64,000 nucleotides of DNA from Candidatus Hodarchaeota archaeon (GCA_016839815.1 JAEOTM010000204.1:49640-113639), one strand, 5' to 3'; positions 29,217 through 64,000 are shown, numbered from the stretch's first letter. Notes: generated by a model from the sequence alone, not told the origin. A program made the numbers and translations.

Positions 29217-29244
29217 GAAGTGACCACTAGACACAAGACCAGAA
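29217..29244 (+). repeat. Structured intergenic repeat, copy 1 (left segment only)
   Basis: GAAGTGACCACTAGACACAAGACCAGAA matches the left segment of copies at 29834, 44657, 46921. Confidence 0.8.
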
Positions 29245-29291
29245 CTACTCATAAATATATTAGTATAGCATCAATCAAGAAGCGATGAATT

Positions 29292-29816
29292 TTGAATAGG
29301 AGTCAAAAGGATAAGTATATAATTAGAGTTTCTCTATTAAGCCATCCTGAGGATCTATTACTCCCTTTAATCCGTGCATTGATTCAAAAATATAAAGGAC
29401 AAACAACAAATCATACATTTGAAGACTTAACTCTCACTGCTTCAACAATAAAGATCCGGGTGGCTAATAGAATTGTAAAAGTGATTCTAGTACAGCCTAT
29501 TGGTCGTGGATTCTTCAAAAAAATGTACGGTCATCACTTTCGATCTAGTGGAGCCATTATTGCATTTTCAAAAGATAAAAATGATTCATTTGAAGCATCA
29601 AGGGCCTTATACCAGCGTTTCAAGGATATCAATACTGCTGAGGTTCCAATTGCATTTGTGGGGATCCAAGAGTCACCTGATGACCTTGTTACTGATGAAG
29701 CCATTCAGCTGGAGGTAGGTACCTCTGAATTCTATTATTTTATTCAGCAGAATGATTTTGAAGTATTAGGGAAAATCCTCCTCTCCTTAGTAACAAAAAT
29801 CTTCACACCTGCTTAG
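29292..29816 (+). CDS. Highly degenerate Rab-like GTPase-fold protein
   Basis: KYIIRVSLL, IKIRVANRIVKVILV, GFFKKMYGHHFRSSGAIIAF, VPIAFVGI align to the Rab paralogs at 3409/60606; nucleotide-binding motifs lost. Confidence 0.6.
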   Translation: MNRSQKDKYIIRVSLLSHPEDLLLPLIRALIQKYKGQTTNHTFEDLTLTASTIKIRVANRIVKVILVQPIGRGFFKKMYGHHFRSSGAIIAFSKDKNDSFEASRALYQRFKDINTAEVPIAFVGIQESPDDLVTDEAIQLEVGTSEFYYFIQQNDFEVLGKILLSLVTKIFTPA

Positions 29817-29833
29817 CAGCAGTTATTCACAGA

Positions 29834-29977
29834 GAAGTGACCACCAGACATAAGACCAGAAGACTTATCTACACACTCTAATTGACTCCTTAAGGTTATT
29901 TTTCTGAGTTTGAAAAAAACGAGAAGACTGACCCTTTCCACGTTAATCTTGTATTATTAGTCCTTGTGTGATAGGAA
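29834..29977 (+). repeat. Structured intergenic repeat, copy 2
   Basis: GAAGTGACCACCAGACATAAGACCAGAA...GACTCCTTAAGG...AAACGAGAAGACTGACCCTTTCCAC...CCTTGTGTGATAGGA. Confidence 0.92.
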
Positions 29978-30381
29978 TGAGTTAGAAAATTAAATGGAAA
30001 TCCCATAAGCATTCAAAATTCCTTTTTTAAGGCGATATAGTATATACTAATTAATCGATATTTAGAGAGTACTAAGAACCACAAAAAGGACGTTATCCCC
30101 AATATTTTTACTTGTAAATGAGAGGACTGAAGAATTTCACATTCTAAAGTCCTTAAAATCATGTCTAGCATTGTAATCGGTCTCTATTGTAGAAAAAATA
30201 AGTTTCTATCGAGAAATGAAATGAGAATTCCGATTTAACACGCCTGACGTCCACATTCCACCTCTAGATGATTCCTTTTATTTTATCAAGTTCTTCAATA
30301 ATAATTTAAAGCTCTGTTGTGAAAAGTAAGGAATAAGTAGGTCAACCTCGCTGAAGCTGGCAGGCAAAGAGAGGGAAATAT

Positions 30382-31014
30382 ATGAGAAGCCAAAAGTTAA
30401 TTGGAACGAAAATTCGAATAAAAATCGTACTGATTGGAGATGGAGGGGTTGGAAAAACCACTCTTCGACGCACATGGTTAGGAGAAGAGTTTAAAACCGA
30501 GTATCATATGACTATTGGCGCTGATTTTGCATCCAAAGAAGTAAGTTACTATCATTCCCCAACAAAAACTACCTATAAAATCAAATTTCAAGTGTGGGAT
30601 TTAGCTGGACAACCGATGTTTAAGGCAGTACAAGAGCTGTATTACCGGGGTGCAGTCGGAGCATTATGCTTTTTTGATATAACAAATCAGGAATCGTACA
30701 TGCATTTGGTCGAGTGGATTCAAAGTTTCTGGAACTTAAATGGCAAGGGGAAAAGTCCCCTGCTTATTGTCGCTTCAAAATGTGATCTTCGCGACAATCC
30801 CGCATTTCCAAATCAGGTATCTGCCCACTATGGCAAAGAATATGCGGAAAAACTATCCAAATCACTAAAAGATGAATTAGGGTTTTCTGTACATTATGTA
30901 GAAACCTCCGCAAAAGACGATATCAATGTGGATAACGTATTCAAGATGTTAGCAGGGGAAATTATATCTAGCTACACCTTTCAGGAAAAAAAGGAAGAAA
31001 CACCTACAAGGTAA
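30382..31014 (+). CDS. Rab-like small GTPase
   Basis: GDGGVGKT, TIGADF, WDLAGQ, YYRGA, SKCD, ETSAK. Confidence 0.95.
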   Translation: MRSQKLIGTKIRIKIVLIGDGGVGKTTLRRTWLGEEFKTEYHMTIGADFASKEVSYYHSPTKTTYKIKFQVWDLAGQPMFKAVQELYYRGAVGALCFFDITNQESYMHLVEWIQSFWNLNGKGKSPLLIVASKCDLRDNPAFPNQVSAHYGKEYAEKLSKSLKDELGFSVHYVETSAKDDINVDNVFKMLAGEIISSYTFQEKKEETPTR

Positions 31015-31185
31015 TTTATTTACCTTAACTAATTTTCCACATCAGTAATCCGTGGAAAAGGAGTGGGAGTTCCGTGAGAACAGAAACAGAAGTGCAACCT
31101 CCATCCAAAGACAATGATAATCCTATATATTACAAAACTCTCAGAGAAGAAAAGTCCATAGGACACTACTATTGAATAATTAGAA

Positions 31186-31800
31186 TTATCTACCTTTCTT
31201 CTTACGGTATAAAATTAAAACAAATAGATTGGGAAAGAAGGAAAGATACAGAAGACCAGGAGTGAAGACAGAACGAGAAGCAGGGAGAGTGGATAAAGGC
31301 CAGGTAGTGATTCTAGAAGGTGCTCCAACAAAGGTGGAAACACAAAAGGTGTCACTAGAAGTGGTAATAGCCAACCAGATAACTCCATAAACAAAACAAC
31401 CCTCCACGAGAAAATCAAAAGAAGAACTAGTAGACAAAGAATAGGAAGGAGGAGAAATACTAACTGGATCAGAATAATTCCAAGTAACTCCTCCAAAGGT
31501 GACCTCATGCCAGAGACGAAGGGAAATGACCTCACAAGGAGAAGAACCATGATAGGTTAAACGGATAACGAGTTGAGAATAACCCATACAATCCCAGGTA
31601 ACCACCTCGGTATAATTAGGAGGATGAGGACCAGGGACAAATTGTGTCTCTCCATAATAACCGAGAACAGACAAAGAAAATCCATCGGATGAGGTCGAAG
31701 GAATTGAAACGAAAAAAATGCTATTTGACAAAAATAGAAGACTAATCCCTATCAAAAACAGACCAGAAAGGAACTTCATTGCAAGAGACCTTCTTATCAT
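31186..31800 (-). CDS. Exported Ser-rich protein with C-terminal sorting signal
   Basis: Signal peptide; ends TPGLLYLSFFPNLFVLILYRKKKGR. Confidence 0.7.
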   Translation of the reverse strand: MIRRSLAMKFLSGLFLIGISLLFLSNSIFFVSIPSTSSDGFSLSVLGYYGETQFVPGPHPPNYTEVVTWDCMGYSQLVIRLTYHGSSPCEVISLRLWHEVTFGGVTWNYSDPVSISPPSYSLSTSSSFDFLVEGCFVYGVIWLAITTSSDTFCVSTFVGAPSRITTWPLSTLPASRSVFTPGLLYLSFFPNLFVLILYRKKKGR

Positions 31801-31925
31801 CTTACGTGTCTAACTAGACTTAAGAAATCTTGGATGACAACACACCTATCACGCAAGAATTAGGGTGAGAATATTTTTTCAAAAAGGAGATAATCCCCAG
31901 ATATAAAACTCCAAAACTCATCAAC

Positions 31926-32030
31926 CACACTTTTACAACTCCTGGAGGTGATTTCTTCTCTTATTTAGAAATAAACGCGAGGCCTGACCCTTTTTACATT
32001 TCTAATAAGAAAGAATCCTTGTACGATTAG
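31926..32030 (+). repeat. Structured intergenic repeat, copy 3 (diverged)
   Basis: CACAC...ACTCCTGGAGG...AAACGCGAGGCCTGACCCTTTTTAC...CCTTGTACGATTAG. Confidence 0.8.
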
Positions 32031-32083
32031 TATTGAACGGGACGTGGAATAATAGAAGGTCAGTCAAAGAGAAACTTTCAGTT

Positions 32084-34894
32084 TCAGTCACGCTTAGTGT
32101 ATATGAAAAGACTGAGTAGGGATATAAACACTAAAAAGAAAGACCAAGAGGGACTCCTTCGACCAGAAGTAGTTGTGGTTGTCGAAGTGGTTGAGGAGTC
32201 TGGTGGAACGGTGCTAGATTCCGTTGTAGTCTTGAGAACATTCTGAATTGAAAAAACATCATCAGAAATATCTTCACCTATCAATCCCTCAGAACAGGTA
32301 GCTATAATTTTGATCAAATAAGTTCCACCATCAGCAACACTCGTAGAATTCCACATGTAACTAGCTGACATTAGACTGCTCCCCAATTTAAACCAAGTAA
32401 CACCATTATCATAAGAAAGGTAGAGATCATAAGTAATTGTATGATTGAGTGAATCAACACCCTCAGTCCATTGGAATTGAACATTACCTGAAAGGATTTC
32501 TCCCCCATTAGGATAGATAATTTGTGGAGGTGAAAAACCATGAGATTTTGCTGTTATGCTAAAAATATTATCAGAAATATCAGCAGCAGTTAAACCATCT
32601 GAACAATTGGCTACAACCTTAATTAGATAATTTCCTTCATCCAAAAATAAAATATTCCAACTATAAACATTTGAAACCAAATCAGACACAAGTAAACTCC
32701 AAGTAGCTCCATTATTAGAAGAATAATATATAGTATATAGCACTAAATGGTTCCATGAATCAGTGGCAGTATTCCAATGAACGGAAATCTCCCCAGACAG
32801 GATTTCACCACCATTAGGATAGAGGACATGAGGTATGGACAATACATGCTTCAGATTCTCAATTAAGAAAGGACCATCAGAAAAATCAGTCGTGATTAAT
32901 CCTTCAGAGCAATTGGCAATAACTTGAATAAGATATTCAGAACCATCAGCGACTGTATTTGTATCCCAATCATAAGTGGTCACTGATAGACCAGTCTGAA
33001 GTAAATTCCATGAAAAACCATTGTCAGAAGAATAGAAAAGGGTATAGCTAATGTTGTGATCCCAGGAATCAATAGACATCGCCCATTGAATCGTAATCAT
33101 TCCTGATAAGATTTCTCCTCCATTGGGATTAATCAAAACGGGCGTTGAAACCTTATGTACAAATAGAAGATAAGGAAGCGTCAATGGGTAGAGATCCTGA
33201 TTGTTGGCAGATCCACCAATATCATATGGTTGATCCACTATCCGATCTGAATCATTATCAGGAGAAGTCCAAGCGTTCCAGTAGTTATACGAGAAAATAT
33301 TCTTCAAGGTAGGATTCGTTTGATCATCAAAAGCTTGAGAATTACCGAGATTATTGAAAAGAAAATCATTTCGTTCAATGTGGTTATGATTTGAATCATA
33401 ACAGTAAATAGATTCAAAAGAAGAGTTCTGGTACAGGTTCAACATCACTGTATTGTTATTTGCTTGACCAATAAGCATACCCCACCCAAGAGAACGAGTA
33501 ATTGAATTTTGGGAGAAATTATTTTGATGCGAGCCCCAAACATACACACTGGTATCTTCACACTCAATGATTGTATTCTCGAAAATAGAGTTGTTATGGG
33601 AATAAACTATGTAAAGGCCTATAGAAATAGGTCGATAGAAAATATTCCCTTGGATAATGCTCATATGTGTATTATAAAGATAGATACCGTTATAATCAGC
33701 ATTAGAAACAGTATTATTAGTAATAGTCATGTTAGTACAATATATGAATTGTAAAGCACTTGTAAGATTAAAAAAATTCTGATCAGAGACTTCCATAAGC
33801 GTACAATTAACTAAGATTACCTGTCCAGCATCAGATGGAACAACCCCTCCATTTATATGTTGCCAAAAAATGAGGGGACGGCTATTAATCCAATTATTTT
33901 CTACCTGGGTTTGTAGATAATCCGTTAGAGTATCTCCAGAGATATGAATCCCTAAAACAGCTAGATGATTATCAATCAGAGTATTATTAGGAGCAGTTTG
34001 AAGAAAAATATTCCGTGCTGTTTCATTCAGAGTATTATTGATTAAACGGTTGGAATATGAGGAGGTAATCCGAATACCATTATCACCAATATTCCCGAAC
34101 ATATTATGAGTAATATTATTGGTATTGGCATTAGACGATAAATAGATACCTTTTCCTTGATCTACAATCACATTATTAGAAACTAAATTATCTTGAGAAT
34201 CCCAAAGAGAAATTCCTTCACGAGAGGAATTGAGGAGAGAATTGTAAGTAAGAGTATTATTATGGGAACTACTAAGATAAATTCCTCCATACCGATTATG
34301 AGAAATATTATTGTAGGAAATATCAAGAGAACCTGAATTACCAATGCTAAAGGCGATGTGATCATGGCCTATGATCCGATTGTGGGTAAAATTACTAGTA
34401 AAACAGGAAGACAGAACAATCGCATCCCCTTGTCCCACAAGGCCTTTGCTTCTTTGGATGGTATTATTAAAAACAACCGCATTCGTGACATTAGAAAAGA
34501 GAATGCCAAATTTGCCACGATCCAGAAAGCAGTCACCTATAGTGAAATAAAGATTAGTATTACGAATTTCAATTAGAGTATCCGCCGAAGATCCCGTAAT
34601 GTTATAATTAGTAATTTGATAGGGGGAAGCTACTGAGCCATTTCCAGGCCAAGATTCAGAGGTAGCAGTCGAAATGAATGCAGAATTGCTGTCGATGAAA
34701 ATTGAGCTATGGGTCAGATAGGAAAACATAGGAACAGCAAAATTCCTAATAGGTGATAATGGTTCGGATGCTAGAAGATGTGTTTGAGGGGGTACAAAAA
34801 CATACCACGTAAAAAGGCCTGAAGACACTAAGATATATATTAAGATTATAACATTCAATTTTATATTTATTTCTGGTTTTTTACTTAATTTCAT
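32084..34894 (-). CDS. Surface protein: right-handed parallel beta-helix (NosD-like) plus three Ig/Fn3-like repeats and C-terminal sorting signal
   Basis: GIYLxxSxNNxI repeats; three PNGGE(I)LSG...W...DS..H...Y.L.YS.DNG..W modules; Thr/Ser linker, SPSW, TM, KR. Start moved to ATG 34894 because the track start lies inside a repeat. Confidence 0.88.
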   Translation of the reverse strand: MKLSKKPEINIKLNVIILIYILVSSGLFTWYVFVPPQTHLLASEPLSPIRNFAVPMFSYLTHSSIFIDSNSAFISTATSESWPGNGSVASPYQITNYNITGSSADTLIEIRNTNLYFTIGDCFLDRGKFGILFSNVTNAVVFNNTIQRSKGLVGQGDAIVLSSCFTSNFTHNRIIGHDHIAFSIGNSGSLDISYNNISHNRYGGIYLSSSHNNTLTYNSLLNSSREGISLWDSQDNLVSNNVIVDQGKGIYLSSNANTNNITHNMFGNIGDNGIRITSSYSNRLINNTLNETARNIFLQTAPNNTLIDNHLAVLGIHISGDTLTDYLQTQVENNWINSRPLIFWQHINGGVVPSDAGQVILVNCTLMEVSDQNFFNLTSALQFIYCTNMTITNNTVSNADYNGIYLYNTHMSIIQGNIFYRPISIGLYIVYSHNNSIFENTIIECEDTSVYVWGSHQNNFSQNSITRSLGWGMLIGQANNNTVMLNLYQNSSFESIYCYDSNHNHIERNDFLFNNLGNSQAFDDQTNPTLKNIFSYNYWNAWTSPDNDSDRIVDQPYDIGGSANNQDLYPLTLPYLLFVHKVSTPVLINPNGGEILSGMITIQWAMSIDSWDHNISYTLFYSSDNGFSWNLLQTGLSVTTYDWDTNTVADGSEYLIQVIANCSEGLITTDFSDGPFLIENLKHVLSIPHVLYPNGGEILSGEISVHWNTATDSWNHLVLYTIYYSSNNGATWSLLVSDLVSNVYSWNILFLDEGNYLIKVVANCSDGLTAADISDNIFSITAKSHGFSPPQIIYPNGGEILSGNVQFQWTEGVDSLNHTITYDLYLSYDNGVTWFKLGSSLMSASYMWNSTSVADGGTYLIKIIATCSEGLIGEDISDDVFSIQNVLKTTTESSTVPPDSSTTSTTTTTSGRRSPSWSFFLVFISLLSLFIYTKRD

Positions 34895-35028
34895 TGATGT
34901 CAAACCGATTAGAGTGAATTTCCGAGGATTTGTACGACTCACAAATCTGATCACCTTAATGATAGGGTTCACTCCTTTATAAAGCTTTGAAGAGTGCAAA
35001 GAAATAAAAACAATCACAGCCACCAAAA

Positions 35029-35165
35029 GAAGAAACCCACCAGACATACGACCAAAAAACGATTCTAGACACATCTTACGACTCTTTAAGACTTTTTTTT
35101 AGAAAAAACGAGAGAACTGACCCTTTCCACATAATTCTAAAATTTATAGCCCTTGTGCGAGGAGT
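35029..35165 (+). repeat. Structured intergenic repeat, copy 4
   Basis: CCACCAGACATACGACCA...GACTCTTTAAG...AAACGAGAGAACTGACCCTTTCCAC...TAGCCCTTGTGCGAGGAGT. Confidence 0.9.
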
Positions 35166-35391
35166 AGGAAGATTGGGGAGAACAAAAGTTAGGATACTGC
35201 GTTTATAACTGCAAGGACCTCACGGAAGTATTCAAGAAGATCAATCTTTTCCTCAAGCGCTTCGTTGAGTAACCTCTCCACCATTTTAATCGATCCACTC
35301 ATTTTAATTGGTTTAAATATCCACCTCACTGGATAACAAACGTCATATACTTGAAGTTCCAAATTATACTAGTCAGATTGAGGTAAATAAA

Positions 35392-36474
35392 ATGACTGGA
35401 CAAGACGTTTACCAACGCCTTCGTGAACATCTACACAATCTTCCTGTAGGTTTTCCCAAAACCGATTCAGGAGTTGAAATACGGATTCTCGAAAGACTTT
35501 TCACCAAGGAAGAAGCTGAAATGGCATGTCACCTTTCACCATTTGTAGCAACAGCTGAGGATATCGCAGAGGAAATTGGACAAAACCCAGAAAACGTAGA
35601 ATCCCTTCTAGAGCAGATGAGTAGGAAAGGATTAATATATAATTCTCGTAAAGGAGGAAGGACTACATATCGAGCAAGTTGGTTCTTTGTAGGTATTTTT
35701 GAACATCAGATCAATCGAATGACTAAGGAATTTGTGGATGATTTCGATCAGTATCTGGAGGATGGATTCCGTGATGAACTACTTTCTTATGAAACGCAAC
35801 AACTGCGAGTGGTGCCAGTTAATAAGGCGATAGATGCAACAAAGCAAGTAGCCACATATGAAGATGCCCGTGAGTTGATTAAACAACAAAGTAAAATCGC
35901 GGTTCTAAATTGCATCTGTAGGCAAAAGAAGGATCTGCAAGGGGGGTCGTGTTCCCGTCACGAGGAGCGAGAAATCTGTCTTGCGTTTTCAAGTGGGGCA
36001 TATTACTTCATGGAACATGGTTTGGGTCGAGAAATTAAACAAGAAGAAGCATTAGAACTTTTAACCTTCGCAGAGGAAAAAGGGCTTGTTATAAATCCGG
36101 GAAATGCCCAAAAAACATTTTCGTTGTGTTTGTGCTGTGGGGATTGTTGTGAATTTCTTGGACTCCTAAAAACGTACCCAACTCCCAGTTCATTAATAGG
36201 GAGTAATTATTTTGCGCAAGTAGATAGTGATTTGTGTTCAGGCTGTGAGACTTGTGTAGATCGTTGTCAAATGGACGCTATCGCTATAATAGAAGATATC
36301 TCTACTGTTAATCTTGATCGGTGTATAGGCTGTGGGCTATGTGTTACAACATGTCCAGAAGAAGCTTTGACTCTCCAACGTAAAGCAGAAAAAGAACAGG
36401 TAGTTCCACCAGCAACTATTAATGAACTTTATATGAAAATTGGAACAGAAAGGTTACAGCGTAATTCTATGTAA
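35392..36474 (+). CDS. 4Fe-4S binding protein with N-terminal HTH-like domain
   Basis: GFPKTDSGVEIRILERLFTKEEA; CICR, CLCCGDCC, CSGCETCVDRC, CIGCGLCVTTCP; GAGGT SD. Confidence 0.9.
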   Translation: MTGQDVYQRLREHLHNLPVGFPKTDSGVEIRILERLFTKEEAEMACHLSPFVATAEDIAEEIGQNPENVESLLEQMSRKGLIYNSRKGGRTTYRASWFFVGIFEHQINRMTKEFVDDFDQYLEDGFRDELLSYETQQLRVVPVNKAIDATKQVATYEDARELIKQQSKIAVLNCICRQKKDLQGGSCSRHEEREICLAFSSGAYYFMEHGLGREIKQEEALELLTFAEEKGLVINPGNAQKTFSLCLCCGDCCEFLGLLKTYPTPSSLIGSNYFAQVDSDLCSGCETCVDRCQMDAIAIIEDISTVNLDRCIGCGLCVTTCPEEALTLQRKAEKEQVVPPATINELYMKIGTERLQRNSM

Positions 36475-36498
36475 TGAAATTTACAAATGATCAATATT

Positions 36499-36556
36499 GA
36501 AAACGAGAGGACGGATCCTTTCCACAATTCTCCTGAGAAATAGCCCATCTGCGATT
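36499..36556 (+). repeat. Structured intergenic repeat, copy 5 (core)
   Basis: GAAAACGAGAGGACGGATCCTTTCCAC...TAGCCC...TGCGATT. Confidence 0.85.
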
Positions 36557-36635
36557 AATTCTAAGGAGTATACTAGATCTGGAATCAAGAACTTTATATA
36601 AAGAAAATCCTGTATTAATGTGAGGAGTTCTACTC

Positions 36636-37181
36636 TTGACTTCAGAAGCTTTTCTTTCCCCCCGAGATTTACAGAAAGAACAATTGATAGGTTGGGCATT
36701 GTTTCTTATAGGAAGTATATCGGCTATTTTGCTGATACTTCTATTTTGGGAGTTAGTAAAAACTGACAATGCTTTTATTGGAACATTGTTGCTAGGGGGT
36801 ATTGTTTTTGGATGGAGTGTGAGTTCTTATATTTTCAAAGAAGCAAAATTTCTCTTCGATGTGAGACTTTCACCTGAATCCCTTTTAATAGAAAAGATTT
36901 ACACTAATTCAGAAAAGAAGAGTCTGCAATACGATTGGGTGGCCATTAAAAACATAGTTTTAGTAGAAGAGTTTAATTTTAGGACCTTCTCAGGATATAA
37001 ATTGAAATTGTCCTTTATTTTAGATTCTGGAAAAGTTTCAGAAGAGGAAGAGTTTTCTTTGCGTATGTACGATAGAAGCTATGAAAAACAGAGAGAATTG
37101 TACAATCGAATTAGTTCTTTCTGGATGCTTGCAAGCAACGAGATGACTGATAATTTCCACACAGTTAGTCCAAATTATTAA
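36636..37181 (+). CDS. Membrane protein, 2 TM plus soluble beta domain
   Basis: Two hydrophobic helices then a PH-like beta region; TTTATATA box at about 36593. Confidence 0.6.
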   Translation: MTSEAFLSPRDLQKEQLIGWALFLIGSISAILLILLFWELVKTDNAFIGTLLLGGIVFGWSVSSYIFKEAKFLFDVRLSPESLLIEKIYTNSEKKSLQYDWVAIKNIVLVEEFNFRTFSGYKLKLSFILDSGKVSEEEEFSLRMYDRSYEKQRELYNRISSFWMLASNEMTDNFHTVSPNY

Positions 37182-37725
37182 AAAACTGACCATACATACT
37201 CGGGTTGGCCCAGTGCCACAAAAGAGCAAAGGCTTTCCTTACTTCAAAATATGCTTCTCTATATTTCTCTGAATCAATTTCTTTAGGGATATGTTGACGA
37301 AAGATTGTTAGCAGTTCAAAAACATCCGTTTTTAGAGGTATAAGGTCTACTTCTTTTCTTATTGGACTCATATTTGTCTCAAGAATTATGTGATCCTTAT
37401 CTTTCACTTTCAGATCATACTCTTCGTAAGCCCCGATTTGCCATAAATAGCGCTTTACAAAGAATTGAATACCTTCTAACCGCTCGGAAACTGCGGTTAA
37501 TAAATCCATGTCATATGTATGAAGTGCATTCTTAAATAGTCCATCCCTCATCATGGAAAAAAAATAAACAAAACCTAGTTTTCCAACAATCAGCGCAAAA
37601 TCAGGAAATCTGGAGAGGGTGTTGATCAATGCGATTGTTACCTCTTCTTGATCATATATTCTTCGAATCGTGGACTTACACCCCTTACAAATGAGCAGAA
37701 TCTCTCTCATTCCTCCATCACGCAT
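37165..37725 (-). CDS. Hypothetical protein
   Basis: 186-aa ORF; CKGC near the N-terminus; SD-like GAGGGGG/GGAGG upstream. Confidence 0.6.
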   Translation of the reverse strand: MRDGGMREILLICKGCKSTIRRIYDQEEVTIALINTLSRFPDFALIVGKLGFVYFFSMMRDGLFKNALHTYDMDLLTAVSERLEGIQFFVKRYLWQIGAYEEYDLKVKDKDHIILETNMSPIRKEVDLIPLKTDVFELLTIFRQHIPKEIDSEKYREAYFEVRKAFALLWHWANPSMYGQFFNNLD

Positions 37726-38130
37726 TTACCCCCTCTTAATCTGTAGATCTTCGGTATTACAACTTGAACAGCTAAAGTGAATTGAATAATAAATATCGAT
37801 TACCTGCTCAGGTTCAAAAGAGGAAAGACTTATTTCAGCAAATCTATTCTTATACCCATAAATGCTTTTAAATTTGATTTTAATGTCAGACAATGTATCC
37901 ACTCAATTTTTTATCGATAGATCATTAGCTTTCATATTCAGAACCGTTTTTCTTATGTATAAATCTCTGTATGTTTTCAAATTTAAACGAGTACGATAGT
38001 TCTTCAGCTCGAAAGTCAACTTGAAAAATGAGGAGAGAAAGAGTGAACAAAATATACGATCCGTCTTGAATCTCTAGAATTCAAGAATTATTCATTCGCT
38101 ATCGCTTATGAAAGGCTGTAGACTCCAAAA

Positions 38131-39645: not shown

Positions 39646-39672
39646 ACCAAGGGCTATTTTCGAGTTATTTTC

Positions 39673-39856
39673 AAGTGAACACCAGATAGAAGACCAGAAA
39701 GCTCCAGAACACGCTCACTTTGAATCCTGAAAGCTTTTTCTCCTAAAAGACAAGAGGACTGCCCCTTTCCACTTTATCTAGGAAAATAGCCTGTATGTGA
39801 GGAGTGGCCGCTGGCTAAGCCTGTTGAAAAAACACCACGTGAATTTCTTTGAAGAA
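39673..39856 (+). repeat. Structured intergenic repeat, copy 6 (long)
   Basis: AAGTGAACACCAGATAGAAGACCAGAA...GAATCCTGAAAGCT...ACAAGAGGACTGCCCCTTTCCAC...TAGCCTGTATGTGAGGAGTGG...CCACGTGAATTTCTTTGAAGAA. Confidence 0.88.
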
Positions 39857-40093
39857 CAATGTCTCTCAACCTTCCCCTGAGCGAGATCCAATGAATTTTC
39901 TCACTGAAAATTATGAAAATAATCACGATTGGACCAATTATATGAAAGAACCTCTTGAGTCAAACTGAAAAAGGTGGCTGAGAAGTTTTAAAGGAAATTG
40001 TATTCTTCAAAAACAATATATAGCTCTCGAGTGAAAATATAGAAATAAGTAGTACAATATCGCTGAAGCGAGTAGATAAAAAGAGGGAAAAAT

Positions 40094-40726: not shown

Positions 40727-40760
40727 TTTTTTTACCTTTACTCATTGACTGTTCAAAAAA

Positions 40761-41174
40761 TCATTGGATAATTTGGAAACCAGCCTGTTTAAAATGGGAA
40801 TCATAGGTAAAGGCAATATCTATGTTTAAAGCCTCCATAACGATAAAACTCATACAATCAGTAAAACTAAAGGTTTTATCTTGATGTAGCTTGAAAAAAT
40901 CCCACCCTTTTTCTTCTAGTGCCCCTTGTATCCAGATAATTCGGATGTTAGGTGATTTTCTAATAGATTCTCCAATTTGAATGACTTCCTTATGAGCCAC
41001 ACGACCCCGTAACAGCGTGAAAAGCTCATCAAGGATGTAATTCGTGGTTACCATCTTCCCATATGTTCCCTCCTGGATTTGACTTTCAATAATGAGAGCA
41101 GAAGAATAATTGATATCATTAGCCACTTTGGAAGCAAAAAATGCACCCGTATCAACAAAAATCATTTTATACAC
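40761..41174 (-). CDS. vapC: PIN-domain (VapC-like) toxin
   Basis: IFVDTGAF, ILDE, SFTDCMSF, AFTYDSHFKQAGF. Confidence 0.92.
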   Translation of the reverse strand: MYKMIFVDTGAFFASKVANDINYSSALIIESQIQEGTYGKMVTTNYILDELFTLLRGRVAHKEVIQIGESIRKSPNIRIIWIQGALEEKGWDFFKLHQDKTFSFTDCMSFIVMEALNIDIAFTYDSHFKQAGFQIIQ

Positions 41175-57738: not shown

Positions 57739-57991
57739 CCAGTTCTTAAAGACCGATGGATGCTGTATTCAATGAATAGGATCCGTATGTAGAATTGATC
57801 GACTTTGTCGGAATTGTTGATCTCTCACCTACTGTTGAAGGACAGCAATTCCCTGCAAATACATAAAATCTTTCTAAGATTCTAGAAATTGCACTATCGG
57901 TACTTAGAATATTGATAACTTGCTTATATCGCTATCTAGAGAAAAACTTCGGATTTGGATGTTGGTTCATCATTCAATCATATAATTTCGA

Positions 57992-58318
57992 CTATCTATC
58001 CTTTGAGCGATAACGACAAATCTTAGGAGGAGAACTTCCTCCAAGAGAAAAAAAAGATCTGTTAAATGTTCCCCAATATGGAACAAAGCCTAAATGCATA
58101 CGTTTTTTACGATCAGAGTAAGTAGAATAAATTCCAACCAAAACGAAGATAGGCCCTATAGCCCAGACAAGCATTATTCCACCAAACATCTGATCTATGA
58201 CCTCAGAATCAGTACTAGAGATAAATAAGGCAATAACCAAAGTCCACGTCGTTCCAGTGATGATACTTAGAGCTCCCTGAATAGTATCATACCCTAACCC
58301 ACCTCTTACATAAACCAT
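57992..58318 (-). CDS. Small 2-TM membrane protein (paralog of 42384..42767)
   Basis: Closely similar central region to the 42384 ORF at both protein and DNA level. Confidence 0.6.
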   Translation of the reverse strand: MVYVRGGLGYDTIQGALSIITGTTWTLVIALFISSTDSEVIDQMFGGIMLVWAIGPIFVLVGIYSTYSDRKKRMHLGFVPYWGTFNRSFFSLGGSSPPKICRYRSKDR

Positions 58319-58384
58319 ATCATCAGAGAAGGAGTCTGGGAAATAAAAACTTTCGAAAATATCAACAATAGAATCTTGTTTATG

Positions 58385-58420
58385 TTCTCAGAAAACGAGA
58401 GGATTGACCCTTTCCACACT
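58385..58420 (+). repeat. Structured intergenic repeat, copy 11 (core only)
   Basis: GAAAACGAGAGGATTGACCCTTTCCACACT. Confidence 0.88.
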
Positions 58421-58447
58421 TGATGATAGAATAATCGACTTGAAATT

Positions 58448-59380
58448 CTAGAGACTTTCACTGGGGTCTCCCTCGACTACCTCCAAGTTAACTGTTCGTA
58501 AGTACTCAACAACTTTCTCCATTCGTATCTCAGAAATCCGATTAAACTGCCTTTGATCCATTTTTTGAATTTCCTTATACAAACTAATAGCTCGATGCAA
58601 CTGGACTTGAGTAATTAACATGGATTCAGGATACTTGATTGCTACTGTCGCTATTAAGACAAGTTCAATTAAAACGAAGATAATGACCCATTCATAGGTA
58701 TTTGAAACGGGCCAAAAGAATAGAAAACCTGTAGCAGAGAGATTAGCTAGACCAATTAATATCCATAAACGTTTTGCAATAATTATTCGAGAAGTAGGAC
58801 TTGCTGGCTTGATTGTTAAATAAGTATAGAGAAAAATACAGGCTACTGCAAAATAGAAACCATAGGCAAGGAGGGGATGACTTGTGGACAGAATAATTAT
58901 TCCGTTAATGGCAAGACCAGCTCCAATTTCTGGTATATTTTGCCCGCCTTCAAGGCTGAAAAATGCGTCCATGGATCGGGGATTCATCTCCCAAAATAAA
59001 AAGATACCTCGTTCATTAGGCATCGATTTCCAAAGCAGAGTAAGGACAATAAGAGAAAAAAACCATGTGATCATCCCTATAGTTAATAATTTTCGCTGAC
59101 TAAGCCATTTCAATCGATTAGCATGGAGAAGAACCAGGATGTAACAACAATACATAGAAATGTGTCGGAGTTGCCAGAACAACACATTTCCAGGTTGGAG
59201 GGCAAGCACAGAAAAAAATACACTGGAGGAAAAAAAGAAAAACACCGCAGCAAAAATAAGGTAATCAATAACTCCTGTTCGACGATAGAGAAGGTAGAGG
59301 ACGGGAATTGGTATAAGACCCATTGTACTCATAAGGAATTTCGTAAGATCAGGAAGAAGAACAATAAATGGATCAACCAT
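58448..59380 (-). CDS. Multi-pass (about 7 TM) membrane protein
   Basis: Seven hydrophobic segments, soluble C-terminal helix after KYPESMLIT. Confidence 0.7.
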   Translation of the reverse strand: MVDPFIVLLPDLTKFLMSTMGLIPIPVLYLLYRRTGVIDYLIFAAVFFFFSSSVFFSVLALQPGNVLFWQLRHISMYCCYILVLLHANRLKWLSQRKLLTIGMITWFFSLIVLTLLWKSMPNERGIFLFWEMNPRSMDAFFSLEGGQNIPEIGAGLAINGIIILSTSHPLLAYGFYFAVACIFLYTYLTIKPASPTSRIIIAKRLWILIGLANLSATGFLFFWPVSNTYEWVIIFVLIELVLIATVAIKYPESMLITQVQLHRAISLYKEIQKMDQRQFNRISEIRMEKVVEYLRTVNLEVVEGDPSESL

Positions 59381-59504
59381 ACGAGTTCAGCTACACATTA
59401 CGATAATACGCTATAAGTATTTCAGGTATAAGTCTAAGTCCAATTTTGTCAGTTAGAGTTACTTGGAACCTTAATTATTTAAGCCTTAAGACTAATCTCA
59501 TTGG

Positions 59505-60347
59505 CTATTTATCGGCAGTGATAACTCCATATCTCAGAATATCTCGATCAATAAGCAGTTTTTGGGTATATGCTCCTTCACAGTGTTCAAATAAAGCGGT
59601 ATTGATGAGATGAAGAGTCTTCAATAAATAAAGGAGAGGATAGGCTCGTTTTGCAGATCTATGTATTCGCCAAGAGGATTTACGAATATGCGCAGTAATA
59701 TCGTGACAGGTAATATTACGAAAATGAGATGAGAGTAATTTCTGATGTATACTCTCAAATGTTTCAAGATCAGGAACCGCCCACCCCTTTAAAAATCGGT
59801 GAAGTAATTTTTTTTCCGTTTCTTTCAGATTTTTTCGTTTTCTATACCCATCCGCAATCACAAGTCTTCCTTCTTTTTTTAATAACCGATAGGCTTCGTT
59901 AAGAAATTTCCCTTTCTCATGTGTATGACAAATACTTTCAATACCAAATATTTTTGTAAAAGAAGAAGAGGGAAAATCTGTCTGGGTATAGTCTTGAAGA
60001 TAGAATTTAAGTAGAGAACTATTGTTCAGCTGGGGGGGAAATTCTAGGGCTTTTTGAAGTTGAAGGCGAGAAATGTTAATCCCGATAGTGGGTACACCAT
60101 GAGTGGAGGCGATGTAGTAAGCAGAACCCCCAACCCCACAACCAGAGTCTAGAACACGATCACCTGGTTTTATATCCAACAATTTACAGACGAGCTTTGT
60201 CAGATTGAGTAATGATTCTTCTTTACTCAGGGTATTACGAGTCCAAATACCAAAGTGTAGGTGATTCTTTGAATAGAGTTGATAGATGGGCATAGTATGA
60301 TCAAAGTAGTTAAGAACCGTCTCCTGAGTTATTTTATGAGCTGACAT
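59505..60347 (-). CDS. SAM-dependent methyltransferase (tocopherol/sterol MT-like)
   Basis: HLHFGIW, RVLDSGCGVGG, IESICH, EAYRLLKKEGRLVIAD. Confidence 0.9.
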   Translation of the reverse strand: MSAHKITQETVLNYFDHTMPIYQLYSKNHLHFGIWTRNTLSKEESLLNLTKLVCKLLDIKPGDRVLDSGCGVGGSAYYIASTHGVPTIGINISRLQLQKALEFPPQLNNSSLLKFYLQDYTQTDFPSSSFTKIFGIESICHTHEKGKFLNEAYRLLKKEGRLVIADGYRKRKNLKETEKKLLHRFLKGWAVPDLETFESIHQKLLSSHFRNITCHDITAHIRKSSWRIHRSAKRAYPLLYLLKTLHLINTALFEHCEGAYTQKLLIDRDILRYGVITADK

Positions 60348-60540
60348 CTGCTTAAAGCCCAGTTTTCTTCAAAGAATCAGTTGAAAATTGTAATAGATAG
60401 GCCTAACTTTCACTGAACCATATAAGGATTTTCCTTTTGACTAAGACTGGTTGAAAATGCTTACTCTATTTGTGATAAGATGAAATAACCATCAAACAGA
60501 AGAGTCGAAAGTTCATTTAGATGAATTTCAAGCTCATTAA

Positions 60541-60596
60541 CACACGCTATTAGACTCCTGAAGGATTTTTATTCAAGAAAACGAGAGGATGACCAT
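60541..60596 (+). repeat. Structured intergenic repeat, copy 12 (right-truncated)
   Basis: CACACGCTATTAGACTCCTGAAGGA...GAAAACGAGAGGATGACC. Confidence 0.88.
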
Positions 60597-60605
60597 TAGT
60601 TTACT

Positions 60606-61301
60606 TCAAACCAAGAAGTGTCTGATCCATAATCGTTCCACTTCCTCTCTCGAGCGTGTGTCTTGATTAATCCAGATATGCTCGATACGGAGTTGGTAAT
60701 GTTCAAAACGGATGTCTAAAATATCCCCATTCCTAAAAATCGAACTAGAAATCCTTGACTCCTTAATAGGGGGCTCTATTGGTTCCAAATCAGGCAAACC
60801 AATAACCTGTCGACTCAAAGACTCAAAAACCTCATGGATATACGGACCATTAGTGGAGGGGCATTCAAAATACCTACCATTTAATGTCTTAGCAAGCTCT
60901 TTTCCCTCCTCTGAAGAAACCAAATCAGAACCAAAGGTAATTCCGACAAGAGCAAGAGGAACTGCTGGTTGTACATACTTCCGAAATTCATTTAACCAAT
61001 TGGTAACTGCATGAAAAGATAAACGATCACCACGATTGAAAAAAATCGAAACAGCCGAAGCTCCGCGGTAATAACTAGGTCTTAATTTGCCAAAAAACTC
61101 TTGGCCCGCAGTATCCACTAATATCAATTTTACTTGGGTATCATCAACTTGAATTTTCTTGGTTGTGATGTCAACTCCAAGAGTTGGAAGATAGTTCGTA
61201 TCAAATTTATTTTCCGCAAACTTACGAATGAGAGCCGTTTTTCCAACCTTTCCTGATCCAACGGCACAAATTTTGAGTAAATATTCGTTGCTAGCGGACA
61301 T
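60606..61301 (-). CDS. Rab-like small GTPase, paralog of 3409..4062
   Basis: GSGKVGKT, YLPTLGVD, DTAGQE, SYYRGA; G4 replaced by GITF; unrelated C-terminal extension. Confidence 0.92.
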   Translation of the reverse strand: MSASNEYLLKICAVGSGKVGKTALIRKFAENKFDTNYLPTLGVDITTKKIQVDDTQVKLILVDTAGQEFFGKLRPSYYRGASAVSIFFNRGDRLSFHAVTNWLNEFRKYVQPAVPLALVGITFGSDLVSSEEGKELAKTLNGRYFECPSTNGPYIHEVFESLSRQVIGLPDLEPIEPPIKESRISSSIFRNGDILDIRFEHYQLRIEHIWINQDTRSREEVERLWIRHFLV

Positions 61302-61354
61302 ACTGAATTATCTCATATAAAATCTAATGCTTCCGACAAAATTCGATGTAAAAT

Positions 61355-61411
61355 CAATGGTTAACTAGAGGGATCGTTCATGATTAAGGAGTTAACTAGA
61401 GAAATTATTCG
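61355..61411 (-). promoter_or_regulatory. Conserved upstream element of Rab-like gene: two TTAACTAG boxes 31 bp apart
   Basis: TTAACTAG at 61361 and 61392; matches 4120-4176. Confidence 0.6.
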
Positions 61412-61615
61412 CTTAAACGAACCTCCTTACGTTTTTCTAAATAGAAAACTCATCTCTTAACGGGATAGCTTTCATGATAGATTCCAGTACTCGTTTGTCA
61501 ACTCATGATTATCGTCGTTAATATCATGACTAGAAGTCAATGAGAAAGCGGATTTGTCTTTTCAAGATCCTCCCTTGGAATATTTGGACAAAAATATTCC
61601 TTCTCTAAACTCGTT

Positions 61616-63541
61616 TCAAATAGCAGAACCGAGATGTTTTCGATATTGTCTCAGCTGCAAAAAAGAATAGTGAATGAAGTAATACAAAGTGAAAAATAAA
61701 AGATTTAGATAGAGGAACATACGAGGTTTGATCACAAGAAAGGTTCCATTAAGTAGATTATGGATTATAATAAAAATAAGAGTAATGAAAACCGCATATC
61801 TGTGAATAGTACGCAGGATTTTTCGATAAGATCCACCATCTAAGACCATAAGAAGACCAGAAAGTGTAAAAATCGTCCCAGAAATGAAACTAAGTGATGC
61901 AAGTAATTGTCCCACTTCATAACGGGTGGTAGGAAAAGCAAAAAATACGCTTGGAAAATCAATAACAGCGGATAAAAAAGTAGTCACATCTGAGAACTCC
62001 GAAAGAGATTTTACATGGCCATGCAAAACCATGTAATGAAATACACTCGATATTGCAAGGAGGGAGCCAAAAAAGTAATGAAACCAAAAAACTTGTTGTC
62101 TTAACCTTCGTTTCAATACAGGGAGGGTCAGATAAAAGCTAACATAAAATAAAACGAAAGAAAACAATCCAAGATAATGGGCAATTTCAGACATAGGGAT
62201 GAAGAGGAGAGTTTCTTGGTCAAAAAACTCGGGGATTAATCCAATCGGAAGTATATAAAAAGGAGTATGTGAGTCAGGAATCTCTAATAACTGAGTAACA
62301 TCCCCTTCACTAAACGCACCGATAACAACGGTTCCCAGAGAATGAGCAGCACATTTAAGATAGATGTTTTGGGCGATCATCCCGATTATCGACATCAATC
62401 TCCGATATGAAAGATCAGGATCAGATTGTTGATCCATCCATGTCATATTAGCAGATATAACTAGACTGAGTTGAGCAGATTCAACCCATGATTGATCTAA
62501 CGCTGTTTTTCTCAAGGAATTACGTGCATCTCCCTCGTGAAAGTGCTTAAGAGAATGATTAGTTAAGAAGTAAGAATACATGCCCATAGATAATCCGTTT
62601 ACTTCACCAACAACTAAACGAAGATCGATAATGGATGCATTTTCTGTAAGAAAAGCAATATCTATACTGTCGTTCAAGATATCAATAATAATCGAAAGGG
62701 GGATTAATCCACTAACATAGTCACGAGTGGATTTACGTTTTGCAATAGCTTGCTCTACAGTCATTTCTTCCGTAGTTATCACGGATTGAATGGCTGACTT
62801 CGAAAACCTCTCTAGATTACCCTGATCTTGACCAACAGGTAATATCATAAGAGGTTGTAATGATGTGTGAAGCAATGCTTTAACTTGTGATGTATTAAAA
62901 TCTGAAATTACCCAGGTGTTTAAATTCAAGGAGGAAAGTTGGAGAAGGAAATTCTGAAGAGCATGACCTACCTCTAAATGGACATACTGAATTCCTCTTG
63001 TACCATAGCGATCTGAAGTTCGATTAAAATCTGCAAAAATATAGAAAATATTTGTCATATTCGCAACAGCCTGATCCTCGGATAAAAGAGCAGGAAATAA
63101 TTGAGATTCGTTAATACTAGAAGAATGTAACTTTAACTCGTGTGCATCGGAATTATAACTGTAATATCCACGATTGAGAGGAGAATTTCCATTATGTTGT
63201 ATAAAAATCTTTAACGGATAAGTTGCACCTGCAGAAGGAACGGTTCGAAACCCTGGACCATGAGTGGTACCTTGTAACGCCCACAGGAGCTGAGATAGTT
63301 CTTCAACACTTAGATCATGAGGATATAAATCTGTAGTTATCTTTGATTGATGAATAGCAGTACTTAGGGGGAGATGACCAAGTAAATCAGGTTCAGGTAA
63401 AATGAAATTATCAGATTCGAAGGGAATGAATTCTATGGTGATCGCTAAGAGGGAGAAAACAAGAACAACTGCTGCAACTACTAATTTAAGCTGTGTAACA
63501 GTGGGAAAAATGGTTCTCATAATTGATAGCACCTTAATCAA
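61616..63541 (-). CDS. Tandem SagB/ThcOx-type nitroreductase domains fused to a His-rich membrane domain
   Basis: LSQLLWALQG...RTVPSAGATYPL...HLEVGHALQN; second copy RKSTRDY...IAQNIYL...GTVVIGAF; N-terminal TM; about 5 C-terminal TM helices with His. Confidence 0.85.
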   Translation of the reverse strand: MIKVLSIMRTIFPTVTQLKLVVAAVVLVFSLLAITIEFIPFESDNFILPEPDLLGHLPLSTAIHQSKITTDLYPHDLSVEELSQLLWALQGTTHGPGFRTVPSAGATYPLKIFIQHNGNSPLNRGYYSYNSDAHELKLHSSSINESQLFPALLSEDQAVANMTNIFYIFADFNRTSDRYGTRGIQYVHLEVGHALQNFLLQLSSLNLNTWVISDFNTSQVKALLHTSLQPLMILPVGQDQGNLERFSKSAIQSVITTEEMTVEQAIAKRKSTRDYVSGLIPLSIIIDILNDSIDIAFLTENASIIDLRLVVGEVNGLSMGMYSYFLTNHSLKHFHEGDARNSLRKTALDQSWVESAQLSLVISANMTWMDQQSDPDLSYRRLMSIIGMIAQNIYLKCAAHSLGTVVIGAFSEGDVTQLLEIPDSHTPFYILPIGLIPEFFDQETLLFIPMSEIAHYLGLFSFVLFYVSFYLTLPVLKRRLRQQVFWFHYFFGSLLAISSVFHYMVLHGHVKSLSEFSDVTTFLSAVIDFPSVFFAFPTTRYEVGQLLASLSFISGTIFTLSGLLMVLDGGSYRKILRTIHRYAVFITLIFIIIHNLLNGTFLVIKPRMFLYLNLLFFTLYYFIHYSFLQLRQYRKHLGSAI

Positions 63542-63589
63542 CGATGAGCAAACAAGAAAATAGTAGGAGACGAATTCTCTCCAATTTCC

Positions 63590-63739
63590 TCATTCAGATT
63601 CTTCTTGTTCCTTTTCCTTGGAAGTACGAGGGATTTTTTCTTTCATCTTGCGTTTGGTATCTTCAATCTGCTCTATAACTTCTTTATTAATATCTCCTTT
63701 TTTTGGTTTACGAATAAAAGGAGACCTTTTCCTAAACAT
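63590..63739 (-). CDS. Putative 49-aa charged protein (not in the ORF track)
   Basis: ATG 63739: MFRKRSPFIRKPKKGDINKEVIEQIEDTKRKMKEKIPRTSKEKEQEESE, TGA at 63590; co-oriented with the downstream gene. Confidence 0.4.
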   Translation of the reverse strand: MFRKRSPFIRKPKKGDINKEVIEQIEDTKRKMKEKIPRTSKEKEQEESE

Positions 63740-63849
63740 TCTCTATCTCAAATAAATCATTGTGAATTAATCCTTTTAAAGGTAACTTCGGATTTATATT
63801 CCTTATCGAGGTATTCTTCGGGCTAAATAATTCTCTCGAAAATCCTCTT

Positions 63850-64000
63850 AACGAAAGGACTGACCATTTCGACACGAATCTTCAAAAAAGCCCGTGTGCG
63901 ATTAGTGGCAGTGTTTAAAACACACTGAGCATGTCGGAAAACCTCCACGCGTATTTCTTCTAAGAAAACTCCTCTGCCAACCGGGTTTCTTTCAAGAAAC
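63850..64000 (+). repeat. Structured intergenic repeat, copy 13 (core plus right segment, runs off the window)
   Basis: AACGAAAGGACTGACCATTTCGACAC...GCCCGTGTGCGATTAGTGG...ACACACTGAGCATGT...CCTCCACGCGTATTTC...ACCGGG. Confidence 0.9.

Follow-up and report, generated by a model that had tools for sequence, protein, structure and literature searches.

Genomic islands and integrated elements accrete in tandem at the 3' ends of tRNA and tmRNA genes, where each new insertion brings a replacement gene end and displaces the old one, leaving a polar row of accessory modules separated by same-direction partial copies of the RNA gene end. The ssrA-specific islands of Dehalococcoides are reported as an example (PMC3146451). 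Sedentary chromosomal integrons and integrase-less attC clusters (CALINs), including those reported in Asgard archaea (Ghaly et al. 2022, PMC9668308), are long arrays of co-oriented ~150-bp sites between heterogeneous, species-variable cargo with interspersed toxin-antitoxin (TA) pairs, and the sites within a lineage resemble one another. In staphylococci, SCC composite islands stack modules at the 3' end of rlmH (orfX); each module is bounded by a direct repeat of the integration site, and many lack their own recombinase and depend on one supplied in trans. Here, we report an array of gene packets in an Asgard archaeon (Candidatus Hodarchaeota, Hodarchaeales) that shares parts of each layout, with repeats derived from the end of the 23S rRNA gene. 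We found no paper describing such an arrangement.

The window analysed is a 64,000-nt stretch at the end of one contig (C196) of a MAG. A preliminary description had proposed that 13 co-oriented copies of one non-coding, non-attC repeat cut its right part into small gene blocks, with no copy in the first 29 kb. The observation holds: all 13 positions carry a copy, as supported by a de novo repeat search, by a pattern search with the core of the repeat (8 matches at up to 3 mismatches, 0 expected) and by an nhmmer profile (12 hits with E from 6e-35 to 2e-11, all on the + strand of the window). Four further relics were found, i.e., two core-only fragments and two trailer-less 23S fragments, and all copies lie on one strand. 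No copy was detected in window 1-29213, even with nhmmer --max at E<1, although the array probably continues to the left of 29217 with eroded repeats. Genome-wide, all 43 hits at E<1e-3 lie in C196 79.4-113.6 kb, on 11 small contigs of 2.8-17 kb, or in the last 200 nt of the 45-kb contig C134, together about 2.5% of 4.24 Mb. The hits are co-oriented within every contig, with 29 informative neighbour pairs, so the chance expectation is about 0.5^29. The cargo is, as described, heterogeneous and of mixed orientation (11 ORFs on + and 13 on -), with three TA pairs and two duplicated cargo genes.

The repeat is a front-truncated copy of the end of the 23S rRNA gene, 10 to about 425 nt, plus its ~130-nt trailer, hereafter called a tail. 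It reads on the minus strand of the window, opposite to the strand assumed in the preliminary description. We name the modules of the trailer A-B-H1-C-H2-D, where A is the far end of the trailer and H1 and H2 are small hairpins. The tails and relics, with scores of the nhmmer profile or positions on a long-form profile, are as follows.

29215..29251 (-), tail relic holding only module A; 2 mismatches in 25 nt to the module A consensus, 0 expected by chance; repeat family D9 of the de novo search.
29817..29985 (-), orphan 23S tail with the full trailer (A-B-H1-C-H2-D) plus about 13 nt of the 23S end; 115.5 bits; long-form positions 1-54.
30103..30142 (-), possible core-only relic (weak); repeat family D3, 77% to the core; nhmmer E 0.27.
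31878..32040 (-), orphan 23S tail, short form; 100.2 bits.
35013..35173 (-), orphan 23S tail, short form; 102.2 bits; long-form positions 1-61.
36408..36569 (-), orphan tail with C-H2-D kept and A/B degenerate; 72.5 bits.
37114..37174 (-), core-only relic between two convergent ORFs; nhmmer E 5e-5; repeat family D3.
39650..39860 (-), orphan tail with about 70 nt of 23S; 104.5 bits; long-form positions 2-113.
41439..41604 (-), orphan tail ending at long-form position 70 (1-70), left half of a split tail; 89.8 bits.
42757..42829 (-), trailer-less 23S fragment (long-form positions 75-153), right half of the split tail.
43890..44012 (-), orphan tail (C-D part); 69.3 bits.
44655..45220 (-), long orphan tail with the full trailer plus about 425 nt of diverged 23S 3' end; long-form positions 1-466, 362.8 bits.
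46917..47064 (-), orphan tail (A-B-C, no D); 100.9 bits.
58304..58454 (-), partial orphan tail (core kept); 67.7 bits.
60473..60597 (-), partial orphan tail (A-B and the start of the core); 39.0 bits.
61419..61570 (-), trailer-less 23S fragment (long-form positions 82-234).
63755..64000 (-), long orphan tail cut by the contig end, with at least 100 nt of 23S; long-form positions 1-142, 147 bits.

The cassettes (K1-K12) between the tails, annotated with Pfam and compared with the related MAGs YT2_065, B3_Heim, YT1_021 and MAG_8, are as follows.

29252..31877, K1 (degenerate Ras-like, 174 aa) and K2 (Ras/Roc GTPase of 210 aa plus a 204-aa unknown); K1 is 89-93% identical to cassettes in YT2_065, B3_Heim and YT1_021, and the K2 GTPase 84-90% to cassettes in YT2_065 and YT1_021.
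32041..35012 (-), K3, a 996-aa NosD/beta-helix surface protein; 87.6% identical over 3240 nt, tails included, to YT1_021 and 83% to MAG_8.
35174..39649, K4-K5, wHTH+4Fe-4S protein, two unknowns and a CitMHS transporter.
39861..43889, K6-K7, second GTPase copy, PIN plus antitoxin, MazE/PIN, 127-aa unknown and nitronate monooxygenase; the parts are separate tail-bounded cassettes in relatives at 85-90% identity.
44013..44654 (+), K8, an RHH/ParE toxin-antitoxin pair.
45221..60472, K9-K11, 567-aa unknown, 3524-aa giant repeat protein, 108-aa and 310-aa unknowns and a methyltransferase.
60598..63754 (-), K12, Ras GTPase (231 aa), then a 641-aa nitroreductase-domain protein; the segment from 61430/61573 rightwards into the next tail (to 63869 and 63911, respectively) is 89.5% identical to cassettes in YT1_021 and YT2_065.

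Rfam gave no hit in the window at gathering score and only noise at E<10 on the long copy; the window's own copies are too diverged for the LSU model, so the link to 23S rests on a sister copy and on direct alignment. A long copy on contig C192 matches Rfam LSU_rRNA_archaea positions 2721-2973 of 2987 on the minus strand (123 bits, E 3.7e-35), and the window's two long copies align to that copy (363 and 147 bits) and directly to a native 23S sequence, with scores of 76 (44655-45220) and 71 (63755-64000) against shuffle maxima of 24 and 22. Native 23S genes are followed by the same core: G004 (a genome with a native 23S) has GTGTGGAAA..GTCCTATCGT, and the metagenome 23S contigs L045 and L046 have GGGCTAACCGTGTGGAAATTTTCAGTCCTCTCGT. 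In L046, the core pairs with the leader GAAAGGACTG, and in the complete genome G022 the trailer has an inverted partner just upstream of the 23S 5' end. The near-invariant 26-nt core is the trailer strand of the pre-23S processing stem. However, the trailer of a complete 23S on contig C57 of a congener, G001, shows no similarity to these tails; this contig may belong to another lineage.

Several other identities of the repeat were considered and dropped. There are no tRNAs in the window, which excludes tRNA-linked att sites. A group II intron 5' end was suggested by GTGCGA after the core, but no intron domains were found and the stretch is the 23S end. C/D-box sRNA, promoter and 5'-UTR readings fail since there is no C box and four copies are followed by convergent genes. 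The RNA fold of the long copy has a z-score of -0.23, which does not support one structured RNA.

Four related MAGs carry the same tail family, with about 70 further copies that are likewise clustered and co-oriented. BLAST of the long tail against five congeners gave no match because those genomes carry other tail families; a congener, G010, has at least 15 co-oriented tails of its own family at the end of a 525-kb contig. Seven cassettes of the window recur in the relatives at 77-93% nucleotide identity in scrambled order; all 16 matches keep their orientation relative to the tails, and homology ends at tails. The syntenic flank genes are only 65-77% identical to the same relative. Please note that this high cassette identity rests on small contigs of MAGs, so mis-binning from a closer strain cannot be excluded. 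Exact-protein look-ups for two cassette proteins found nothing. The tail at 41439-41604 stops at profile position 70 and the 23S-only relic at 42757-42829 starts at position 75, with 1.15 kb of genes between them, whereas in YT2_065 the same NMO cassette is preceded by an unsplit long tail, as expected if genes were inserted into a tail.

No integrase, serine recombinase or reverse transcriptase is linked to the array in the incomplete MAGs searched. The only Phage_integrase hit in this MAG (89.5% complete) is on C183, which is not a tail contig, and none lies on any tail contig in the four relatives; this genome has no resolvase and no RVT_1 hit, and its three TnpB genes lie on unrelated contigs. 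None of the 25 most frequent of the 60 Pfam families hit by 50 array ORFs is a transposase or integrase. A 342-aa ORF at the array edge was considered as a recombinase candidate, but it has no Pfam hit and reads as hydrophobic and membrane-like, with N-terminal CxxC motifs.

We consider, with moderate confidence, that the region from at least 29.2 kb to the contig end, together with 11 small contigs (about 110 kb in all), is an accretion and shuffling island behind the 23S gene, made of small gene packets each separated from the next by one same-direction tail. In this view, DNA carrying a tail copy recombines with a resident tail, either at the live 23S gene end or at any orphan, inserting a packet and leaving a tail on each side; a tail brought in at the gene end would keep the rRNA gene and its processing signal intact. 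Recombination between same-direction tails would then delete, move and exchange packets without ever inverting them, and tails would later erode. The enzyme, not identified here, could act in trans, or general homologous recombination on 150-500 bp of homology could suffice. Our data show what the repeat is, its clustering and polarity, and the reshuffling between species with breakpoints at tails, whereas the location directly behind the 23S gene, the insertion route and the enzyme are inferences. The 23S gene is not assembled in this MAG or in the four MAGs sharing the tail family, contigs end inside the array here and in G010, and the tail at the contig end is itself a diverged orphan. Breakpoints inside tails are spread over profile positions about 55-88 and are not nucleotide-precise, which does not fit a classic site-specific recombinase. 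Tails show no within-genome homogenisation (mean identity 0.66 within genomes, 0.67 between), i.e., no concerted evolution, which speaks against frequent homologous exchange or gene conversion. Co-inheritance of tail segments with the neighbouring cassette, examined to map a single crossover point, is only a weak trend based on 6 pairs on each side, and the best tail-to-tail matches are 0.7-0.86 and scattered over genomes.

The interpretation in the preliminary description is partly supported. A polarised, clustered array of heterogeneous blocks, a repeat that is not an attC site, and the lack of a nearby integrase are all supported, and the comparison with relatives shows block reordering with breakpoints at the repeat; none of the outcomes set beforehand as refuting it (copies scattered in both orientations, synteny breakpoints away from the repeat, a known attC or IS-end family) was obtained. 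Not supported are a new kind of site of unknown origin; the alternative of a hotspot of a non-autonomous mobile element, since the element is a host rRNA fragment confined to one island, without terminal inverted repeats; and integron-like gene content, since the blocks hold several genes on both strands.

Among other explanations, the tails may be kept mainly as working cis elements (transcription terminators, insulators or RNA-processing sites) that shield packets from read-through of the strongly transcribed rRNA operon, having multiplied by ordinary segmental duplication, with the reshuffling being general island plasticity. The first 10 nt of the core are 97% conserved in 67 copies from five species, more than the flanking 23S pieces, H1 and H2 show compensatory changes, and the trailer end is T-rich on the sense strand. 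However, this unlikely reading does not explain why breakpoints between species fall at tails or why cassette orientation is always kept, and, with gene orientation about half and half relative to the tails, a one-directional terminator would serve only half the genes. Such a function could co-exist with the favored explanation.

Slightly less likely, the tails spread as a non-autonomous mobile element, e.g., a SINE-like retrocopy of the 3' part of the rRNA precursor or a MITE, inserting again and again between the genes of a pre-existing variable island without mobilising them. The fairly constant trailer end next to an A/T-rich run, with a variable truncation on the 23S side, recalls 5'-truncated retrocopies, and tail diversity is shared across species. 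Against this, no reverse transcriptase is found in the genome (89.5% complete), no copy lies outside the island, cassettes move together with an adjacent tail and lose homology at tails, and trailer-less 23S fragments and split tails fit insertion of genes into tails, not of tails between genes.

A true integron array or CALIN with unusual attC sites is very unlikely and already refuted for the attC features, in spite of the integron-like layout and the reported enrichment of integrons and CALINs in Asgard MAGs (PMC9668308): the site is an rRNA gene fragment, the consensus of 41 full copies lacks RYYYAAC/GTTRRRY ends, single-strand DNA folds of both strands show only small local hairpins instead of one long imperfect hairpin (z-scores of 0.8 to 1.5 in three of four copies), no IntI is linked to the array in five genomes, which are incomplete MAGs, and the packets hold 1-4 genes on both strands, whereas integron cassettes are mostly single promoterless ORFs pointing the same way. 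An assembly or binning artefact, conceivable as these are MAGs of 84-93% completeness and rRNA regions assemble poorly, is equally improbable because the same architecture and cassettes appear in five MAGs from several independent records and in metagenome contigs, the tails are diverged copies (63-90% identical to a native 23S) rather than mis-joined rRNA reads, and the array is continuous with 29 kb of ordinary flank here and 485 kb in G010.

Compared with the tRNA/tmRNA islands, the repeats here are likewise same-direction copies of the 3' end of a stable-RNA gene, in a polar row of accessory modules, and by the inferred route each insertion at the gene end would bring a replacement end. 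The target, however, is the 23S rRNA gene end plus its long trailer, the units are tiny (1-4 genes), none carries an integrase, the length of the copied gene part varies from about 10 to 425 nt, and packets are reshuffled between species like cassettes. Compared with integrons and CALINs, there is no IntI, attC hairpin or R box, the site is derived from rRNA, and the packets must carry their own promoters. SCC repeats are short (about 15-20 bp) and the Ccr serine recombinases are known and present in some modules, whereas no recombinase of any kind is seen here.

It is possible, though doubtful on present evidence, that the 23S tail is the attachment site of a dedicated, not yet recognised recombination system, encoded in trans or borrowing rRNA-processing or repair enzymes. 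If so, Hodarchaeales, the closest known archaeal relatives of eukaryotes, own an rRNA-anchored functional counterpart of the integron, which would capture gene packets and pass them between species, including Ras-type GTPases regarded as eukaryotic signatures.

There is also a practical consequence: Asgard MAGs break at these arrays and lose their rRNA genes there, and the orphan 23S fragments can be mistaken for rRNA genes. The arrangement would add a third way of building gene-cassette arrays, beside integrons and tRNA-linked islands, using the end of an rRNA operon as a reusable landing and exchange site with no integrase in view. It occurs in the archaeal lineage placed closest to eukaryotes, with small GTPases, surface proteins and toxin-antitoxin pairs among the cargo, and gives a concrete route by which accessory genes, eukaryotic-signature families among them, may move between Asgard species.

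The repeat is real, and the preliminary description, which had reported one co-oriented non-coding element between blocks of unrelated genes, holds as an observation. A repeat search returned a 26-nt core, AACGAGAGGACTGACCCTTTCCACAC, in 13 co-oriented copies between 29.9 and 63.9 kb, and a pattern search with this core gave eight matches at up to three mismatches where none is expected by chance. Alignment of the copies showed a modular element of about 150 nt, consisting of module A (GTGACCACCAGACATAAGACCAGAA), a variable spacer, module B (GACTCCTTAAGGCTATTTC), a small hairpin H1 of variable length, the core C, a second small hairpin H2 with compensatory changes, and module D (TAGCCCGTGTGCGA). 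An nhmmer profile found 12 strong copies in the window, all on the + strand, and none upstream of 29214. The first copy of the preliminary description, at 29217, holds module A only, but it is significant on its own. In the whole MAG (4.24 Mb, 206 contigs, 89.5% complete), all 43 hits fall in the last 34 kb of this contig (whose end is also the end of the window), in 11 small contigs of 2.8-17 kb, and in the last 200 nt of contig C134; the hits are co-oriented within every contig. C134 is a 45-kb contig that ends with a partial tail (G000:C134:45026-45121; L012 19808-19903) in the same flank-then-tail geometry as the window, being either a second array edge or a solitary relic.

The gene content is as had been described, i.e., Ras/Roc GTPases, three toxin-antitoxin (TA) pairs, a CitMHS transporter, redox enzymes, large surface proteins, and two duplicated genes. 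Genes lie on both strands, 11 on + and 13 on -. A giant 3524-aa ORF at 47164-57738, with internal repeats of ~290 nt (52050 against 55659) and one TSP3 repeat hit, sits as a single cassette between two tails. Paralogous Ras GTPase genes at 3409-4176 and 60606-61411, one in the flank and one in the array, share their upstream region (repeat families D14 and D16, 78-79% identity). Directly at the array edge, at 28119-29147, there is a 342-aa ORF with N-terminal CxxC motifs and a hydrophobic, membrane-like sequence; no Pfam family was found for it, and a 28%-identical paralogue lies on contig C6.

Several copies continue for 100-450 nt beyond module D, and we examined whether the repeat derives from 23S rRNA. 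A covariance model search (cmscan) placed the extension of the copy on contig C192 on the minus strand at positions 2721-2973 of 2987 of LSU_rRNA_archaea (123 bits, E 3.7e-35). A profile built from the long copies matched the window's own long copies at 44754-45220 (363 bits) and 63851-63999 (147 bits), and these two align directly to a native 23S sequence with scores of 76 and 71, against shuffle maxima of 24 and 22. In the + orientation of the window the element is therefore the reverse complement of the 23S 3' end followed by its trailer: module D is the last ~14 nt of 23S, and H2, C, H1, B, and A are the trailer. The positions of the copies and relics that are discussed individually are as follows.

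29215/29217: relic holding module A only, a deleted tail
41439-41604: tail that stops at profile position 70
42757-42829: trailer-less internal 23S fragment, starting at profile position 75
44754-45220: long copy, reverse complement of 23S in the + orientation
61419-61570: trailer-less internal 23S fragment
63851-63999: long copy, reverse complement of 23S in the + orientation

Native genes confirm this identity. In genome G004, the 23S end is followed by GTGTGGAAA...GTCCTATCGT. Two metagenome contigs, L046 and L045 (Ga0210353_162552 and Ga0210332_105294), with a full 23S of exactly this tail family, read GGGCTA-ACC-GTGTGGAAATTTTCAGTCCTCTCGT, and the core there pairs with the leader GAAAGGACTG just ahead of the 23S 5' end. 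In these contigs (L046 1-400 and L045), the 23S 3' end is joined head-to-tail to the 23S 5' end through about 50 nt, which form the processing stem closed by a GTAA loop; this is either tandem rDNA or an assembled circular pre-23S RNA. In the complete genome G022, the trailer has an inverted partner immediately upstream of the 23S gene. The near-invariant core, of which the first 10 nt are 97% conserved in 67 copies, is therefore the trailer strand of the pre-23S processing stem. In contrast, the trailer of the complete 23S on contig C57 of the congener G001 (L035 3250-3450) contains a direct repeat of ~40 nt (cagttacacaggttgcgtataata...) and shares nothing with the tails studied here; this contig may come from another lineage in the bin.

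The 23S part of the copies is truncated at variable points: most stop 10-30 nt into the gene, some at 40-210 nt, and a few at 320-425 nt, and there are also trailer-less internal 23S fragments, two of them in the window. The copies are diverged pseudo-fragments, with BLAST identities to a native 23S ranging from 68% to 90%, and 63% for the window's long copy in direct alignment; they are not mis-assembled rRNA. In all five genomes with this tail family, the 15-nt hairpin H2 between the core and module D is present, with compensatory changes, in most orphan tails, but it is absent from native 23S trailers and from a native-like tail subfamily (core GAAAATTTCC), indicating that at least two tail subfamilies are shared across species.

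The exact core occurs in four other species-level MAGs, i.e., B3_Heim, Hodarchaeota YT1_021, Hodarchaeota YT2_065, and MAG_8, where its copies are co-oriented within each contig and spaced 1-3 kb apart. It does not occur in the other 17 genomes of the genus that were searched. Those other genomes have their own tail families: in the congener G010, at least 15 co-oriented copies of its own 23S tail fill the last 40 kb of a 525-kb contig, and orphan LSU fragments covering positions 2721-2973 occur in seven congeners. G022, which is from a different family, has no array.

Seven units of the window recur inside the arrays of the relatives at 77-93% nucleotide identity: the Ras-like gene, the GTPase, the 996-aa surface protein together with both of its tails, the PIN pair, the MazE/PIN pair, the nitronate monooxygenase (NMO), and the nitroreductase-like gene. 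Their order is scrambled. In YT2_065, for example, K12 (the cassette of the nitroreductase-like gene) is followed by K1 (the Ras-like gene) and, further along the same contig, by the NMO cassette, while in YT1_021 the order is K12, K6-TA (the toxin-antitoxin part of cassette K6), K7a (a part of cassette K7), and K3 (the surface protein). All 16 matches keep their orientation relative to the tails, and homology ends at or inside tails. Blocks that hold several genes here are separate tail-bounded cassettes elsewhere, and the two trailer-less 23S relics sit exactly at such internal joints. One joint looks like an insertion into a tail: the tail at 41439-41604 stops at profile position 70, 1.15 kb of genes follows, and the 23S-only relic then starts at position 75, while in YT2_065 the same downstream cassette is preceded by an unsplit long tail.

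Genes to the left of the first tail, within 17100-29150 (around 17.1, 18.2, 19.7, 23.8, and 27.4 kb), are tail-bounded cassettes in YT1_021, YT2_065, B3_Heim, or MAG_8, and the relic at 29215 is a deleted tail; the island therefore probably continues leftwards in a tail-less state, with eroded tails. The syntenic flank of the window is only 65-77% identical to the large contig of YT1_021, which also starts its array about 29.8 kb into the aligned stretch, whereas cassettes on the small contigs of that MAG are 85-90% identical. Please note that mis-binning of small contigs from a closer strain cannot be excluded; with this reservation, the difference suggests recent exchange between species.

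The array works most like tandem accretion at tRNA/tmRNA gene ends, and it looks like a sedentary integron. However, it fails the defining tests of an integron: no IntI was found, the tails lack attC motifs and do not fold as one hairpin, and there is no cassette polarity. It also lacks the integrases of accretion islands. The interpretation offered in the preliminary description, a gene-capture or shuffling array using a new kind of recombination site, is partly supported, in that packets are reshuffled with breakpoints at the repeat, but the repeat itself is a copy of the 23S end and its trailer. Integrons based on attC sites have been reported in Asgard MAGs by Ghaly et al. (PMC9668308), but not this structure; Wu et al. 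(PMC8813620) and Valentin-Alvarado et al. (PMC11529989) do not describe it either, and further literature searches found no description.

No tyrosine recombinase lies on any tail-bearing contig in five genomes, each of which has one conserved Xer-like gene elsewhere. In the genome under study, no serine recombinase and no reverse transcriptase were found, and its three TnpB genes lie on unrelated contigs. None of the 25 most frequent Pfam families among 50 array ORFs is a transposase or integrase. Two findings limit the picture of recombination between same-direction tails: the breakpoints are spread over about 30 nt near the 23S end rather than sitting at one nucleotide, and tails are not homogenised within a genome (identity 0.66 within genomes, 0.67 between). 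Neither a classic site-specific recombinase nor frequent homologous exchange is clearly indicated, and the tail segment next to a shared cassette is only weakly more conserved than background.

The origin of the repeat, its clustering and single orientation, and the reshuffling of packets with breakpoints at tails rest directly on our sequence comparisons, whereas the connection to a live 23S gene end, the route of insertion, and any enzyme acting on the tails are inferred. Within these limits, the best-supported picture is recombination between same-direction tails. In this view, a DNA carrying a tail copy would integrate at a resident tail, either at the live gene end or at an orphan; at the gene end, the incoming tail would keep the rRNA end and its processing signal intact, and exchange between tails would then move, delete, or swap packets without inversion.
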